A stretch of 4,579 bases of DNA. It comes from a virus (Duplodnaviria; Heunggongvirae; Uroviricota; Caudoviricetes). Location of the stretch: positions 1-4,579 of the IMG/VR virus record IMGVR_UViG_2778261247_000015, one strand, 5' to 3'. Below are positions 1-4,579 of the stretch, piece after piece. The position numbers and the translations under genes were made by a program. Numbering within the stretch: position 1 is the first letter of the stretch; each line of letters starts with the position of its first letter. The notes beneath the pieces were generated by a model, which was not told where the DNA came from, did not search any database, and saw only the letters and a program-made list of their open reading frames with translations.

Positions 1-420
1 ATGACGGATTATCAGCCATACAGGAAAGGAACTGTGCTTGCCCCAACTGGGCCATGCAATCATCTTCATGTGATTTGTAATGATCCTGTTTATTACCCCG
101 TTAACGATTGTTATTGTGTTTTAGTTGTTAATATTTCTAGTATCAAGGATGGTGTACCCCACGATCCGTCTTGTGTCTTGAATTCTGGTGATCATCGCTT
201 TATCAAGCATCCAAGTTATGTTGTTTACGCTGAAGCTATAATTTGGCGAGTGGATAACATGGTTAGAAAGCAGCGATCGGGTGAGATTTCTGTTCATGAT
301 GATATGCCAGAAGCTACATTCAATAGAATTCTGGACGGTTTTGATATATCTGATGAAGTTACGCCAAAGAACCTTAAATTTAAAAATAAATATTGCGTAT
401 CATCTATTGATGATGAGTAA
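1..420 (+). CDS. Hypothetical Cys/His-rich protein (139 aa), unknown function; first gene of an AT-rich convergent cassette
   Basis: Complete ORF from ATG at 1 to TAA at 418-420; a start further upstream cannot be excluded because the window begins here. GC is visibly lower (about 38-40% by eye) than the roughly 50% of the minus-strand operon. Six Cys and several His (NHLHVICNDP, HDPSCV, DCYCV). No family recognised. Confidence 0.5.
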   Translation: MTDYQPYRKGTVLAPTGPCNHLHVICNDPVYYPVNDCYCVLVVNISSIKDGVPHDPSCVLNSGDHRFIKHPSYVVYAEAIIWRVDNMVRKQRSGEISVHDDMPEATFNRILDGFDISDEVTPKNLKFKNKYCVSSIDDE

Positions 421-459
421 ACAACAGGAATTGTTTCGGTATAACTTCTGGAGTTTTCT

Positions 460-633
460 ATGGAAGATCAAAAAGCAACCAAGCCACAGGTTAAGTTCGA
501 CACAATGAAAGCATTCGCAGGTATGGGGGCTGCTGTTGAAGTTCTGATGAAGGCTGCTCCTAATGCGTTCACTCACGCTACTGTCTCTGGTAAAGAGCAG
601 CAGGGTAAGCTTCGTCGTCGCAAAGCAGCATGA
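460..633 (+). CDS. Small hypothetical protein (57 aa, MEDQKATKPQVKFDTMKAFAGMGAAVEVLMKAAPNAFTHATVSGKEQQGKLRRRKAA), basic C-terminal tail
   Basis: Absent from the supplied ORF track; found by manual translation. ATG at 460 is preceded by GGAG (450-453) at 6-nt spacing; TGA at 631-633; a strong intrinsic terminator follows 24 nt downstream. Begins 40 nt after the stop of the 1-420 gene, so probably co-transcribed. Confidence 0.5.
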   Translation: MEDQKATKPQVKFDTMKAFAGMGAAVEVLMKAAPNAFTHATVSGKEQQGKLRRRKAA

Positions 634-652
634 TCATAGCTGGTGCTTTTTG

Positions 653-682
653 AAAACCCGCCTTCAGGCGGGTTTTTTCTTT
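653..682. terminator. Bidirectional rho-independent terminator between convergent transcription units
   Basis: AAAA-CCCGCC(657-662)-TTCA-GGCGGG(667-672)-TTTTTTCTTT. Perfect 6-bp GC-rich stem with 4-nt loop; T-run on the plus strand and A-run (T-run for minus-strand transcripts) on the other side. Sits 24 nt after the 460-633 stop and immediately after the minus-strand stop at 681-683. Confidence 0.75.
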
Positions 683-962
683 AGTGATGTTCTTTGTCCT
701 TCTGTTTGACTGTTCTGACCTGTTCCCACTCGATACGTCCTTCTTCTCGCCTTTTGTCTATGTATTCCGCAAGATCTTGAATATTGATGCAACGTTTTGC
801 TTTTTGTGATGTGCCGATGCGATATGTTGGAACGGGCAACTTACAAGCGTTTGCTTTTGCCTCTGCCGTGGCTGGACTCATACCAAAGTACTTTTGGCTA
901 ACTGCTGAGAGTTCAATGTTTGGGGTATTGAATTCAGCCATCAGTAAAAACAAGGTGTTCAT
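681..962 (-). CDS. Excisionase-like / PrtN-family DNA-binding protein (93 aa from MNTLFLLMAEF...)
   Basis: ORF 681-989; the GTG at 989 and ATG at 974 lack an SD, whereas ATG at 962 is preceded by GGAG at 6 nt, so 962 is the preferred start. Sequence ...SAVSQKYFGMSPATAEAKANACKLPVPTYRIGTSQKAKRCINIQDLAEYIDKRR resembles PrtN/excisionase-like small DNA-binding proteins of enterobacterial prophages (recalled similarity, not searched). Last gene of the leftward operon, ending at the terminator. Confidence 0.55.
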   Translation of the reverse strand: MNTLFLLMAEFNTPNIELSAVSQKYFGMSPATAEAKANACKLPVPTYRIGTSQKAKRCINIQDLAEYIDKRREEGRIEWEQVRTVKQKDKEHH

Positions 963-998
963 AATTTTCTCCATCAAAACCGGCTGCACCCGGGAAAA

Positions 999-1571
999 TC
1001 ATAATTCTGTGCTGGTGGCAGGAATTAATTTCTGCCAGATAGCGGAAACATATTTTGCCTGATGACGGGCATCAGCCAGGGCGTTGTGCCGTTCGCCATC
1101 GAAAGGCATGTCCATTTTGGGGTCGAATCCGATGGAACGCCCAAGCGTAACGATCGTGCGCACATCGTGATCATTCCAGTACGCCCACGGGCAGATTTGT
1201 CCTGCTCGCTCGTAAGCTCCACGTAAAATTACGTTGTCGAAGTTGGCTCCGTTACCCCAGACTTTTAAATATTTCGTATTGTCTGCGTGCCGATTGATGA
1301 AATGGCTCAGTTCAGAGAGTGCATCGCTGATCGACAAAGTATCATCAATGCAGATTGCAGCTCGTGCTTCAGGGCTTTGTTTCAACCACCACAGGATGGT
1401 ATCGCCGTCAGGTGTAGCTCCTTGCTTCATAGCACTGTCCAGGCTGACAACCGCATAGAATTCTTGTCCGATGTCTCCGGTTTCTGGGGTGAAGAACACC
1501 GCGCCAATAGAAACGATCGGCGCATCCTTATTTTTCCCCATCGTCTCAAGGTCGATCATTAAGTTGTTCAT
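999..1571 (-). CDS. DEDDh-family 3'-5' exonuclease (DnaQ-like fold, phage-type)
   Basis: Translation carries Exo I (MIDLETMG, D-x-E), Exo II (WGNGANFDNVIL) and Exo III (HNALADARH, H-x4-D) motifs. ATG at 1571 overlaps the upstream TGA by 1 nt (TGATG) with AGGAGG 7 nt upstream; the track's GTG at 1574 is a less likely start. Confidence 0.8.
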   Translation of the reverse strand: MNNLMIDLETMGKNKDAPIVSIGAVFFTPETGDIGQEFYAVVSLDSAMKQGATPDGDTILWWLKQSPEARAAICIDDTLSISDALSELSHFINRHADNTKYLKVWGNGANFDNVILRGAYERAGQICPWAYWNDHDVRTIVTLGRSIGFDPKMDMPFDGERHNALADARHQAKYVSAIWQKLIPATSTEL

Positions 1572-2167
1572 CACTTCACCTCCTGCGGCGGTTCCGGTAG
1601 CGGCATCCAGTGAGTTGCTTGCTCAATACCATTACCCGGCTTAATCGTTGCATCTCCGCGCCGAAAAGTGCTTCCGGTATAGCGTGCGGAGCATATTAGC
1701 GGTTCAACCAGAGAGCTATCGAAATTCACCGAAATGAGCACGTTCTGATTCTTCTCAGGCATTCGCTCACTACAGCTTATCCAACTATCCGGAGTTACCG
1801 GAGAGTTGGTTGACGTTTCCGAGGTTTCCCGAAAATTATTGGTTGACGAATCCTTATTTTCCCGAAAGTTTCCAGCCTGAAGCATGGCGGCGCGGTGACA
1901 CCAGATAATCCAGCCAAGCGCCATATCCCATGCCATGTATTCGCTATCGCCATTTTTTGCCCTGCGACGATCTACAGATTCCCCGAAACGCTTCTCCATA
2001 AATAATTCATAGGCTGCCCGTTCATCCGATACTGCTTCCAGCGATGCCAGCGCAATCCGTGCCAGCTCTTCCGCTTCTTCTGCTGGCAGTACAACGTTGC
2101 TACCAGGTCCGTATGTTTTGCGCCACTCCTTGATTGTCAGCAGTCGCTCTTTGGTAATAGTGGTCAT
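1571..2167 (-). CDS. DUF551-domain prophage protein (198 aa) with an internal 11-aa tandem repeat linker
   Basis: ATG at 2167 with AGAGGA 7 nt upstream. C-terminal region (...GNGIEQATHWMPLPEPP) resembles the DUF551 domain common in lambdoid early regions (recalled). The central linker FRENKDSSTNN/FRETSETSTNS is encoded by a 33-bp tandem repeat. Confidence 0.7.
   Translation of the reverse strand: MTTITKERLLTIKEWRKTYGPGSNVVLPAEEAEELARIALASLEAVSDERAAYELFMEKRFGESVDRRRAKNGDSEYMAWDMALGWIIWCHRAAMLQAGNFRENKDSSTNNFRETSETSTNSPVTPDSWISCSERMPEKNQNVLISVNFDSSLVEPLICSARYTGSTFRRGDATIKPGNGIEQATHWMPLPEPPQEVK
1806..1871. repeat. 33-bp imperfect tandem direct repeat (2 copies) inside the DUF551 gene
   Basis: Copy A 1806-1838 TTGGTTGACGtttccgaggTTTCCCGAAAatta; copy B 1839-1871 TTGGTTGACGaatccttatTTTCCCGAAAgttt; about 25 of 33 positions identical by manual alignment, in frame (11 codons). 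Confidence 0.7.
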
Positions 2168-2170
2168 GTG

Positions 2171-2320
2171 TTAGTCCTCTGTAGCAGGTGATACGCCGTA
2201 GTTGCATTCTTCATAGAATATGTCTCTGCCTATTTCTTCGGCATCCTCTGGCGTGTCTGCTTCAAACTCAACAACCTTGCAATCATTAAATCCTTCGATA
2301 GTCACGATGTACTTAGCCAT
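2171..2320 (-). CDS. Small highly acidic hypothetical protein (49 aa, MAKYIVTIEGFNDCKVVEFEADTPEDAEEIGRDIFYEECNYGVSPATED)
   Basis: The track gives a 76-aa ORF from 2401, but that would overlap the upstream gene by 80 nt. The internal ATG at 2320 has GGAG about 7 nt upstream and sits 1 nt after the upstream TGA (2322-2324). 14 Asp/Glu against 3 Lys/Arg. Stop TAA at 2171-2173 lies 3 nt before the next start. Confidence 0.45.
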   Translation of the reverse strand: MAKYIVTIEGFNDCKVVEFEADTPEDAEEIGRDIFYEECNYGVSPATED

Positions 2321-2321
2321 A

Positions 2322-2921
2322 TCACTCTCCTTTGATGCGAATGCCTGCGGCGCGTGGCACATTAACTTCCACGATGCGCACAGTTGGTTTGTACATCTCA
2401 ATCGCTGTCAGCCAGTCAGCGCCGGTCATATGCTTTTCTGCATCGCCATTAGTCCATTGAACCGGCACACCAATAGCTTTCATCGCAATTTCTATTTCCC
2501 CGGCAATGGCGCTTTTCCCGCAACCAGTAAAACCAGAGACAACGACAAGAACTTCGCCTTTGGCTGGTTTTATTTCCCGTGCTTCCAGTTCAGCAATACG
2601 CTTACTCCCATCCGAGATAACACCTTCGTAATACTCACGCTGCTCGTTGAGTTTTGATTTTGCTGCCTCCAGTTCGTCCAGTAGTGCAATCACATCAGGG
2701 TCACTGTCATCAACTACTGTTACGCGTGATTTTTCATAATGCTCGTCGGCAAGTGTTCGACCAATTTTGAAATCTCCATCACCACCATAACTGGAGCAGG
2801 CATAAGTGACATGTGCTCCAGATATACGCTGTATTGACATTTCCTCGCCACAAACAGAGCATTCAGGTACTGGCTTAGGTGAATAACGTTCCCGTAGCGC
2901 CTGATAATCAATCTCGCTCAC
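2322..2921 (-). CDS. Ea22-like prophage early-region protein (putative); N-terminal Cys cluster and central coiled-coil-like segment
   Basis: GTG start at 2921 overlaps the upstream TGA (GTGA) with AGGAGG 7 nt upstream. N-terminus MSEIDYQALRE... and overall architecture recall ead/Ea22-like proteins; CSVCGEEM...YACSSYGG suggests a zinc-ribbon-like element; LLDELEAAKSKLNEQREYYE...IAELEARE is coiled-coil-like. Family assignment is low confidence. Confidence 0.5.
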   Translation of the reverse strand: MSEIDYQALRERYSPKPVPECSVCGEEMSIQRISGAHVTYACSSYGGDGDFKIGRTLADEHYEKSRVTVVDDSDPDVIALLDELEAAKSKLNEQREYYEGVISDGSKRIAELEAREIKPAKGEVLVVVSGFTGCGKSAIAGEIEIAMKAIGVPVQWTNGDAEKHMTGADWLTAIEMYKPTVRIVEVNVPRAAGIRIKGE

Positions 2922-3403
2922 TGGTTGCCCTCCTTCATAAAAATAATCCAGTGGGTCTTGTCACCCTTTCCTGTTCGTTGACCGATAACAGGCTTTCTGT
3001 CGGTCAGTGCCAATATCTGGCGAACAGGTATTTGCGTTTCATTCCATTTAAAAATCAGAACGCCGTATGGCCACAACACACGAAAGGCTTCTTTGAATCC
3101 CTGCCGTAAATCATCACGCCAGGTATCTTTATTCAGCCGTCCATATTTCTTTCCCATCCAGGCGTTATCACCAACACGCTCAAGATGCGGAGGGTCGAAT
3201 ACAACCATCGAAAAGGATGCGTCTGCAAATGGTAGTGCACGAAAATCAGCTATCAGGTCAGGACTGATAATCAGGCGTCGTCCATCACACAATGTGTGCT
3301 CTTCCTTTCTGATATCGCTAAATATCGCCCGGTCGTCATTCTTATCGAACCAGAACATGCGACTGCCACAGCACATGTCGAGGATTGCTGCATGTCCAGT
3401 CAC
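2918..3403 (-). CDS. Small SAM-dependent methyltransferase-like protein (putative phage N6-adenine/N4-cytosine DNA methyltransferase, about 161 aa)
   Basis: ILDMCCGSRMFWF resembles SAM-binding motif I and VVFDPPH resembles the (D/N)PP(Y/F/H) catalytic motif IV of amino-methyltransferases. Preferred start is GTG at 3403, overlapping the upstream TGA (GTGA) with AAAGGAGG 6 nt upstream; the track's ATG at 3436 would overlap the upstream gene by 37 nt. Confidence 0.55.
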   Translation of the reverse strand: MTGHAAILDMCCGSRMFWFDKNDDRAIFSDIRKEEHTLCDGRRLIISPDLIADFRALPFADASFSMVVFDPPHLERVGDNAWMGKKYGRLNKDTWRDDLRQGFKEAFRVLWPYGVLIFKWNETQIPVRQILALTDRKPVIGQRTGKGDKTHWIIFMKEGNQ

Positions 3404-3750
3404 TGGCTGCCTCCTTTGCGAAGCCGTTCCGCCCATTCTTCAAGGGATTTCTCTGCATATTCACCGGACAGGCCATCAATCGGATGCGATTCATTAGCTA
3501 ACTCTTCTTTTGCTGACAGAATCATGCGTGTAACGTCGAAAACTTCAGCCAAAGGCTTATTGATAAATCCGTGATTGAAAGCAGCAGCAAGACGGCTTGC
3601 GGTATAGTTAATACCCTCGTTGCGAGCCTCAGCACGTACTTCATCGAATTTACGCACCAGATACTCAGCATTTGTTTCATTCACTTTCAGATCTCGCGGT
3701 ACACATTTCCCGCGAAGAAACCCTTCCATTTCGAAAACATTCATGCGCAT
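3400..3750 (-). CDS. Hypothetical protein (116 aa), unknown function
   Basis: ATG at 3750 with GGAG about 8 nt upstream; overlaps the HD gene stop (3741-3743) by 10 nt. No recognisable motif; predicted helix-rich, acidic C-terminus (EEWAERLRKGG). Confidence 0.55.
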   Translation of the reverse strand: MRMNVFEMEGFLRGKCVPRDLKVNETNAEYLVRKFDEVRAEARNEGINYTASRLAAAFNHGFINKPLAEVFDVTRMILSAKEELANESHPIDGLSGEYAEKSLEEWAERLRKGGSQ

Positions 3751-4277
3751 TTGCGTAACTCCGATAACTCGTTAAAACGTTCCATAAACATCCCATAGGC
3801 ATGGCCTGGCGACAGTGGAATAACTTTGAACATCTCTGTTGCCGGGATACCTTCCAGAACAGGCCAGAAAGAGCCATCATCAAGCCCGAGATCACGGCGT
3901 TCGGTTGCCAGCATAATGAGATCGGCATATTTCACTGGCGTGCTCATAACAGGAGGTAACCCGTATTTCTCACGGATTACGGCGTCTATTTTTTCTTCCA
4001 TCCGTTTATAGTCAGGAAGAAGTCGTTTCAGTGGCGCGGGGATGTCCTGGCAATATGCTTCTGTTGCATCATGCATTAACGCTTCAAAAGCAAATTCCTG
4101 CGGCACCAGCTGGCTGCAAAGCACCGCATGCTGGGCGACACTGTAGAAGTGTGAAAGATGTCCTGCAAAGCGACAGATATTTGAAAGGGAAACTGCGATA
4201 TCGTTAATCACGATGTCGTCTTTATTTATCTTGTCATAATAAAAATGCTTCCCGGAAAAAGTTTTAATAAATGACAT
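3741..4277 (-). CDS. HD-domain phosphohydrolase (YfbR-like 5'-deoxynucleotidase family, putative)
   Basis: Metal-binding pattern H...H...HD...D: NICRFAGHLSHFYSVAQHAV then LMHDATEAYCQDIPAPLK, closely matching the HD-domain signature of YfbR-type nucleotidases. The track start at 4289 is GTG; ATG at 4277 has GGAG 6 nt upstream and is preferred. Confidence 0.8.
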   Translation of the reverse strand: MSFIKTFSGKHFYYDKINKDDIVINDIAVSLSNICRFAGHLSHFYSVAQHAVLCSQLVPQEFAFEALMHDATEAYCQDIPAPLKRLLPDYKRMEEKIDAVIREKYGLPPVMSTPVKYADLIMLATERRDLGLDDGSFWPVLEGIPATEMFKVIPLSPGHAYGMFMERFNELSELRKCA

Positions 4278-4371
4278 TTCGTTCTCCACTTTATATGCGC
4301 TGCACCGCGCTGAATTCTGCTAAAAGGAAGCTCTCACCATCCGGTGATTATTGAGTTAATTACGTTTCCAT

Positions 4372-4393
4372 AAATGCCCCCGCAGGGGCATTT
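4372..4393. promoter_or_regulatory. Perfect 9-bp inverted repeat (AAATGCCCC-cgca-GGGGCATTT) in the intergenic region upstream of the HD gene
   Basis: Positions 4372-4380 are the exact reverse complement of 4385-4393 with a 4-nt loop. No U-tract on either strand, so not a canonical intrinsic terminator; could be an operator, an RNA stability or processing hairpin, or a weak terminator. Confidence 0.4.
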
Positions 4394-4405
4394 GCAGTAA
4401 TGAAA

Positions 4406-4579
4406 TCAGGCGGTGAAAGTACCAATAAAGGTTTCTACTTTGCTGTCTTTGAATTTCTCAACAAGCAGATCACGAAATTCGTTAGCCATTTCTTCCTGCA
4501 TCGCTTCCAGCTGAATAATGCGCAGAACCAGTACAGGACGATCGCCAGTGATAATGCTGAGGCGTAATTTAAACGGACG
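4406..4579 (-). CDS. 5'-truncated hypothetical CDS (C-terminal 57 aa ...[56 protein letters not shown])
   Basis: Open minus-strand frame runs from the window edge (4579) to TGA at 4406-4408 with no internal stop. Missed by the track because its start lies outside the window. Function unknown. Confidence 0.4.

Follow-up and report, generated by a model that had tools for sequence, protein, structure and literature searches.

YfdR, a short Eae-family protein and a putatively mobile orphan methyltransferase as neighbours in the early-left operon of an Escherichia coli lambdoid prophage

Introduction

In Escherichia coli K-12, the prophage CPS-53 carries the gene series yfdP-yfdQ-yfdR-yfdS-yfdT-torI, and its product YfdR has been described as structurally homologous to YfbR, a 5'-deoxynucleotidase, and as having a much lower affinity for nucleotides than the latter (Noguchi and Katayama, PMC4776307). 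YfdR binds domain I of DnaA, which depends on Phe46, and the suppression of hda-185 needs both yfdQ and yfdR (PMC4776307); with regard to the hydrolysis of deoxynucleoside monophosphates (dNMP), the same paper also cites Zimmerman et al. 2008. The backbone of CPS-53 recurs in the stretch of viral DNA analyzed here, which comprises 4,579 nucleotides (nt; positions 1 to 4,579 of the IMG/VR record IMGVR_UViG_2778261247_000015) and is called the window at its full length. Therein, yfdR is followed on the minus strand by a gene for a protein of 116 amino acids (aa) and by a gene for a small methyltransferase, and these three genes are the subject of this study.

The 116-aa protein is related to the Ea22 proteins, which are known as tripartite mosaics with a short segment at the N-terminus, a coiled coil in the middle and a C-terminal domain that can be exchanged (PMC10834534, PMC8614690). 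With regard to small methyltransferases, PamA of the Staphylococcus aureus prophage mPhi11 has only 141 aa and no target-recognition domain, features the motif NPPY at residues 64-67 and methylates GATC (PMC12435837). Further examples are M.EcoGI and M.EcoGII from E. coli prophages, beta-class enzymes of 349 aa with the motif DPPY, which are non-specific and silent in lysogens. Such silence is typical of orphan methylases encoded by prophages (PMC5778455, PMC6602927, PMC8597746).

A first-pass annotation of the window, made without database searches, had read the three genes as one coupled module. According to the analysis presented here, they are unrelated neighbours in an early-left operon, namely a known YfdR, a short Eae protein and a mobile orphan methyltransferase cassette, and this account is, taken as a whole, quite probable.

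Three genes within an early-left operon

The window is part of an Escherichia coli lambdoid prophage, and the prophage origin assumed in the first-pass annotation is thus correct. It was matched piecewise by megablast in 488 phage records, mostly Shiga toxin (Stx)-converting and mEp460-like phages, and in 300 complete E. coli genomes annotated DNA was found with 96-99.9% identity to the block 2918-4289. Since database searches moreover returned thousands of homologues for each of the three proteins, the three open reading frames (ORFs) are regarded as real genes and not as chance frames. The three minus-strand genes at 2918-4277, the HD-domain phosphohydrolase, the small methyltransferase with its DPPH motif and the translational coupling between the genes, all of which had been proposed from the letters alone, were borne out. 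The features in question are as follows.

3741-4277, minus strand: yfdR, coding for an HD-domain 5'-deoxynucleotidase/DnaA-binding protein of 178 aa (K-12 YfdR identity, phrog_318, RefSeq, 2gz4)
4068-4073, minus strand: codons of the YfdR HD dyad His69-Asp70 (sequence reading; aligned to the HD of Atu1052/2gz4)
3400-3750, minus strand: short Eae/Ea22-family protein of 116 aa (phrog_583, phrog_614, homologues named Eae protein, alignment)
3400-3417, minus strand: upstream joint AAAGGAGGCAGCCAGTGA of 18 nt, with Shine-Dalgarno sequence, GTG start of the methyltransferase and TGA stop of the Eae gene
2918-3403, minus strand: predicted orphan minimal (D)PPH amino-methyltransferase of 161 aa, a single-gene cassette (PADLOC, phrog_954, predicted fold, conservation)
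3362-3382, minus strand: motif I of the methyltransferase (S-adenosylmethionine (SAM)-binding loop), L-D-M-C-C-G-S, residues 8-14 (homologue alignment)
3185-3196, minus strand: motif IV of the methyltransferase, D-P-P-H, residues 70-73 (homologue alignment)
2918-2936, minus strand: downstream joint GAAGGAGGGCAACCAGTGA of 19 nt, with Shine-Dalgarno sequence, GTG start of the Ea22-like gene and TGA stop of the methyltransferase
2322-2921, minus strand: Ead/Ea22-like protein of 199 aa with a Walker A motif in its C-terminal domain (Pfam Ead_Ea22, 2.5e-25)

The ORF of the HD protein spans 3741-4289 if it is read from a GTG, and the ATG at 4277 is the start that matches K-12 YfdR. The yfdR and Eae genes overlap by 10 nt (or by 4 nt with the second ATG as start), the Eae and methyltransferase genes by 4 nt. 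From yfdR to the exonuclease gene further downstream, the junctions measure -10, -4, -4, +1, +3 and -1 nt, followed by +36 nt to a PrtN/excisionase-like gene. In the near-identical genome C311, the gene chain runs on upstream via yfdP and a ParA gene to an XRE-type repressor, which identifies it as the early-left operon of a prophage resembling CPS-53. Thus, the region is a stretch of an early-left (pL-type) operon, the accessory genes of which are independently exchangeable and linked to one another through overlaps of stop and start codons.

Neighbours without a common module

The first-pass annotation read the HD protein, the 116-aa protein and the methyltransferase as a single functional module translated together, e.g., for counter-defence by degradation of signalling nucleotides combined with DNA methylation. 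This reading can point to the overlapping stops and starts among the three genes, to the recurrence of the intact block in 300 E. coli genomes and to the fact that in all 11 methyltransferase copies found downstream of yfdR, the Eae C-terminal domain precedes the methyltransferase. Nevertheless, it is very improbable. The tight or overlapping joints tie together all genes from yfdR to the exonuclease and are thus not peculiar to these three, and the two genes yfdR and methyltransferase seldom occur together, whichever of them is taken as reference: yfdR is present at a distance of up to 6 kb in 6 of 80 viral contigs with the methyltransferase (and missing in 74), and among 75 viral yfdR contigs with room downstream, the methyltransferase follows yfdR in 11 and is absent from 64. 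Likewise, 855 complete E. coli genomes possess the methyltransferase and 3413 at least some portion of the block, mostly yfdR, whereas all three genes are present in 300, which compares with the 855 genomes for the methyltransferase and with about 3400 for yfdR. In the O104:H4 outbreak lineage, the methyltransferase cassette is located in another operon, the early-right one, where replication genes and a DUF977 gene precede it, and in phages from hosts of other phyla the sampled methyltransferase neighbourhoods feature neither partner among the annotated genes. Empty-site alleles, which are described below, show the methyltransferase gained or lost alone. Besides, no PADLOC defence-system model matched the HD protein, the Eae protein or the neighbouring proteins, and nothing points to a degradation of second messengers by the HD protein, as had been considered. 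Accordingly, the three genes are unrelated neighbours and not a functional module.

The methyltransferase as a single-gene cassette

The two joints that flank the methyltransferase gene, AAAGGAGGCAGCCAGTGA before it and GAAGGAGGGCAACCAGTGA behind it, are imperfect direct repeats of each other, each of which comprises the TGA stop of the preceding gene as well as the Shine-Dalgarno sequence and the GTG start of the next one. In three further loci (L102, L118 and L158), the Eae gene passes via a single copy of the joint directly into an Ea22-like gene (protein starting VSEINYQ... or VSKIDYQ...) with no methyltransferase in between. Judged by these sequences, the three loci represent empty sites of the cassette. 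Other lineages possess flanking repeats of their own, with 18 nt in L029 and L071 and 14 nt in L024. In a comparison of 69 distinct junction pairs over all methyltransferase loci, 14.5% of the flanks from the same locus scored at least 10, in contrast to 2.9% across loci and 0.2% of shuffles (Mann-Whitney p = 4e-7, a significance which is inflated by the relatedness of the loci). Only some 10 of the 69 pairs show a strong repeat, which is hence no universal feature. From the sequences it may be inferred that recombination at such short joints inserts or deletes the single methyltransferase gene while the translational coupling of the operon is kept.

The coupled start also bears on the extent of the protein. 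Read from its first ATG at 3436, the ORF would cover 2918-3436 (172 aa). The true start is most likely the GTG at 3403, resulting in 161 aa, because an AAGGAGG Shine-Dalgarno sequence lies 6 nt upstream, the start overlaps the preceding stop as GTGA, the RefSeq form has 161 aa and the homologue alignments begin at this position.

Family, fold and company of the methyltransferase

Relatives of the methyltransferase were found at 45-65% identity in 256 deposited phages, with hosts including Streptococcus, Vibrio, Acinetobacter, Porphyromonas, Listeria (A118 ORF50), Gordonia and Enterococcus, among others. The family is widespread among phages of the temperate type that infect Proteobacteria, Firmicutes, Actinobacteria and Bacteroidetes. 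The 855 complete E. coli genomes with the gene correspond to about 16% and include O157:H7 and O104:H4. The copy of the O104:H4 outbreak lineage is the same small methyltransferase at 95% nucleotide identity (L163, 4988-5482, early-right operon). As a separate observation, the C311 prophage carries a second, frameshifted gene annotated as phage N-6-adenine-methyltransferase beside yfdN (L164, 18320-18977), and K-12 CPS-53 does likewise (yfdM).

Conservation was read from an alignment of 64 diverse homologues with identities down to 41%. The DPPH motif (residues 70-73) is invariant in all 64 of them, as are D30, R32, E105, R108 and W120, while D9, C12 and G13 of motif I are nearly invariant; thus, the catalytic residues, the lack of which had been named as a refuting result, are kept, as are the SAM-binding ones. 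Furthermore, a core of about 150 aa is retained in 2021 cluster representatives. The AlphaFold2 model reaches a predicted local distance difference test (pLDDT) score of 94.7 and adopts the class I Rossmann methyltransferase fold, in which the features of the SAM-binding core, LDxCCGS as motif I and the invariant acidic D30, are present and several canonical helices of class I folds are missing. In this model, the catalytic core fills all 161 residues, and there is no separate target-recognition domain. Longer homologues carry just unrelated tails and no informative domain fusions.

The subfamily searches with hidden Markov models that had been proposed for both enzymes were run. They assigned the methyltransferase to MTase_II (6e-74) and oMTase (1e-49) in PADLOC and to phrog_954, labelled DNA methyltransferase (2e-88). 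In Pfam, the sole match was Methyltransf_11 with 18.4 bits, below the cut-off of 21.2, and no Pfam DNA-methylase family was found. A sequence search of the PDB returned nothing significant, and a profile search with the homologue alignment returned generic methyltransferases only. Structurally, the methyltransferase comes closest to Bud23, Trm11 (DPPY-type, m2G10), TrmM/TrmN6, PrmC/HemK and small-molecule methyltransferases, with generic matches throughout (TM scores of about 0.55-0.6, 15-19% identity).

Regarding the genomic company, the gene is situated within the early replication/recombination block in all four annotated phages examined. The adjoining gene which it overlaps codes for a large DNA methylase in Gordonia phage RavenCo17 and is a Lar-like restriction-alleviation gene in a Pseudomonas phage. 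No cognate nuclease adjoins it; the neighbours are the Eae and Ea22-like genes in C311 or DUF977 and Ea22-like genes in O104:H4. Therefore, the methyltransferase is an orphan and not part of a Type II restriction-modification system. Based on its sequence family and the model, it is likely a minimal orphan SAM-dependent amino-methyltransferase and predicted to be active, owing to the invariant catalytic and SAM-binding residues and the high pLDDT.

Literature searches for the DPPH motif, WP_000145672, WP_001275731, WP_001242740, phage orphan methylases and A118 ORF50 returned no characterisation, nor any report of DNA methylation at a defined motif by this family. The A118 record has the note "methylates cytosine residues", which apparently reflects annotation only.

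Compared with the described enzymes, the methyltransferase resembles PamA and M.EcoGI/M.EcoGII in being encoded by a prophage without a cognate nuclease and in its catalytic motif of the (D/N)PP(Y/H) type; with PamA it further shares the tiny size and the lack of a separate target-recognition domain. In contrast to these enzymes, it belongs to another sequence family without a match to the Pfam families N6_N4_Mtase, MethyltransfD12 and N6_Mtase, and the aromatic residue of its motif IV is His, whereas PamA has NPPY and M.EcoGI/M.EcoGII have DPPY. The order of its motifs, I and then IV, is gamma-like, whereas M.EcoGII is of the beta class. As beta-class proteins of 349 aa with DPPY, M.EcoGI and M.EcoGII were rejected as relatives. 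Trm11, TrmN6 (TrmM) and PrmC, the best structural neighbours, have in common with it the Rossmann core and a (D/N)PP(Y/F) motif for exocyclic or amide NH2 groups. They carry substrate-binding domains (THUMP, N-terminal) or rely on the partner Trm112, whereas the methyltransferase has none of these.

Function of the methyltransferase

The job we favour for the methyltransferase, with somewhat more than even confidence, is the evasion of restriction through amino-methylation of DNA during lytic growth. The enzyme would methylate the exocyclic amino group of adenine (N6) or cytosine (N4) in replicating phage DNA, which would blunt restriction by the host, and its gene would probably be transcribed only after induction of the prophage or after infection. 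A role directed at DNA is suggested by the PADLOC models MTase_II and oMTase, by phrog_954, by the replication/recombination neighbourhood and by the precedent of PamA. The small size is no argument against a DNA target, since PamA methylates GATC with 141 aa. Given the silence of prophage orphan methylases in lysogens, the methylomes of lysogens would not expose a motif of this enzyme.

An action on other substrates, i.e., on host tRNA or rRNA (N2 of guanine or N6 of adenine), on a protein glutamine or on a small molecule, by which the host would be reprogrammed during lytic growth, appears unlikely. It is consistent with the identity of the structural neighbours, with the lack of a target-recognition domain and with the unusually high conservation across phyla (45-65% between phages of Streptococcus and E. 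coli), which would fit a universally conserved target. However, the structural matches are all generic, the models derived from DNA methylases match strongly, the genomic company consists of genes for DNA replication, recombination and anti-restriction, and PamA is a bona fide GATC methylase without a target-recognition domain. Far less probable still is a decayed and inactive remnant which is passively carried along. The shortness of the protein, the several missing helices and the sub-threshold Pfam match would agree with such a remnant, and so would the frequent silence of prophage orphan methylases in lysogens (see Introduction), but this silence reflects repression and not inactivity. Moreover, the core and its invariant residues are maintained across the cluster representatives, the model is highly confident, and the gene is intact with a perfect Shine-Dalgarno sequence and a coupled start.

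Beyond the favoured restriction evasion, it is tentatively proposed, as a rather doubtful extension, that the whole family consists of phage enzymes which, across phyla and without target-recognition domains, might methylate DNA with little or no specificity, or just replicating or single-stranded DNA.

YfdR and its partner gene yfdQ

The HD protein is identical to K-12 YfdR in 175 of 178 residues (98%). It is matched by phrog_318 (4e-111), and RefSeq labels the gene as "yfdR: 5'-deoxynucleotidase"; the Pfam family YfbR-like scores it with 24.3, under the cut-off of 25.9. Its putative metal ligands H50, H69-D70 and D119 (YfdR numbering) are retained; they align with the metal-binding residues of Atu1052 (PDB 2gz4, E = 1.8e-13) and are the same in K-12 YfdR, as are the flanking genes. 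While the first-pass annotation considered the substrate unassignable from sequence, the HD protein is thus a studied protein (PMC4776307), and via the identity with YfdR the substrate question appears to be largely answered in the literature. By transfer from that work (PMC4776307), the YfdR of the window would, like its K-12 counterpart, hydrolyze 5'-dNMP weakly and bind domain I of DnaA. It would likely serve to damp the initiation of host replication or to adjust nucleotide metabolism in early lytic growth, presumably with yfdQ as its functional partner.

The gene that truly travels with yfdR is yfdQ, which is located upstream of it at a fixed distance of about 120 nt in 61 of 73 viral loci. 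In the window, the spacer between both genes measures 128 nt, and that of K-12 is of equal size. Its fold energy is not significant (z = -1.56), and the hairpin which it contains has no U-tract. The two features at this end of the window are the following.

4406-4579, minus strand: 3' end of yfdQ (DUF2303 family; the translation matches the C-terminus of K-12 YfdQ)
4373-4392, minus strand: 8-bp GC-rich hairpin AAUGCCCC-UGCG-GGGGCAUU directly past the yfdQ stop (minimum free energy and centroid folds)

Altogether, the arrangement resembles yfdQ-yfdR-yfdS-yfdT of K-12 CPS-53 in yfdQ, the spacer of about 128 nt, yfdR, the 10-nt overlap of yfdR with the following gene (88% identity to YfdS over the first 42 residues of its product) and the excisionase gene at the far end of the operon. 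The difference lies in the interval from yfdR to xis, which in K-12 holds just yfdS, yfdT and ypdJ and in the prophage of the window instead the genes for Eae, the methyltransferase and the Ea22-like protein, the 49-aa ORF, the DUF551 gene and the exonuclease gene.

The 116-aa protein as a short Eae/Ea22 member

The 116-aa protein had been described as lacking a recognisable family. Instead, it is Eae/Ea22-like and has the RefSeq name Eae protein; the thousands of relatives in the database search bear the names Eae protein, ead/Ea22-like or DUF4752. Two parts emerge from the PHROG models, with phrog_583 covering residues 1-42 and phrog_614 as well as others covering residues 36-116. In the alignment, relatives of 166-202 aa have their first about 36 and last about 80 residues near-invariantly in common with it, but in these relatives a variable insert, alanine-rich and of the coiled-coil type, separates the two end blocks, which the 116-aa protein joins directly. 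Its N-terminus is identical to K-12 YfdS in 37 of 42 positions. There was no match of Pfam Ead_Ea22 (PF13935) to the 116-aa protein, which has no central coiled coil, and a PDB sequence search returned nothing significant. An AlphaFold prediction from 32 homologues (pLDDT 53) gave no usable fold. Judged by its sequence blocks, the protein is a short member of the known mosaic Eae/Ea22 family. With Ea22 of lambda and Stx phages and with Ead/Eae of P22 it shares the genomic region (the exo-xis "ea" region), the tripartite mosaic design and the N- and C-terminal family blocks. It differs from lambda Ea22 by the missing coiled-coil middle and by a C-terminal domain which is not that of lambda Ea22.

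The gene behind yfdR shares only the N-terminal block with the 116-aa protein in 51 of the 75 yfdR loci. At the large majority of yfdR loci (boundary at 3741-3750 of the window; L082-L161), the first 36-42 or so codons of this gene are 81-100% identical, independent of whether the C-terminal part is of the YfdS/DUF551, Eae or Ea22-like type. These codons, being conserved in front of varying C-terminal parts, therefore indicate a recombination boundary inside the coding sequence behind yfdR and not at a gene border.

The Ea22-like protein encoded downstream of the methyltransferase (2322-2921, minus strand) features the Walker A motif GFTGCGKS within its C-terminal residues (about 85) and a weak NCBIfam match to adenylyl-sulfate (APS) kinase (E = 0.0028). 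Possibly, a small P-loop domain serves here as the exchangeable C-terminal domain of an Ea22 variant.

Further features of the window

Behind the Ea22-like gene, the operon continues on the minus strand as follows.

2171-2320, minus strand: 49-aa ORF, next in the operon after the Ea22-like gene
1571-2167, minus strand: DUF551 protein (Pfam/PHROG matches)
999-1571, minus strand: Rv2179c-like 3'-5' exonuclease (Pfam/PHROG matches)
681-962, minus strand: PrtN/excisionase-like gene (Pfam/PHROG matches)

On the plus strand, the window opens with a 139-aa ORF of low GC content (38%) at 1-420, which is matched by phrog_19071 and has no Pfam or PADLOC match. In phage Lys8385Vzw (L001, 2432-3420), the gene preceding this ORF overlaps it by 4 nt and encodes a SocA/Panacea antitoxin domain (PF13274, 2e-19), which makes the ORF a candidate for the toxin in a toxin-antitoxin pair of the PanA type located between int and xis. 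In C311, a Panacea gene at the same place has a different partner of 182 aa. A 57-aa ORF at 460-633 (plus strand) is matched by phrog_2741 (8e-36), and past it lies a strong 11-bp hairpin with a T-run at 652-677, which looks like a terminator between the plus-strand cargo genes and the convergent minus-strand xis end of the operon. No RNA family was found in the window by Rfam.

Significance for phage operons and methylomes

As a three-gene module, the locus is of little weight, since it reflects ordinary lambdoid mosaicism and yfdR has already been characterized. The duplicated joint of Shine-Dalgarno sequence and GTGA together with the empty sites, in turn, provides a clean case of how single genes enter translationally coupled phage operons. 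Besides, the methyltransferase belongs to a compact, widespread and annotated family with an invariant DPPH motif, for which no assigned specificity was found. The definition of its target would fill a gap in the annotation of phage as well as pathogen methylomes. If methylation with little or no specificity, or of just replicating or single-stranded DNA, held true for the family, temperate phages would owe a broad shielding from many restriction systems to a plug-in cassette of about 480 nt.

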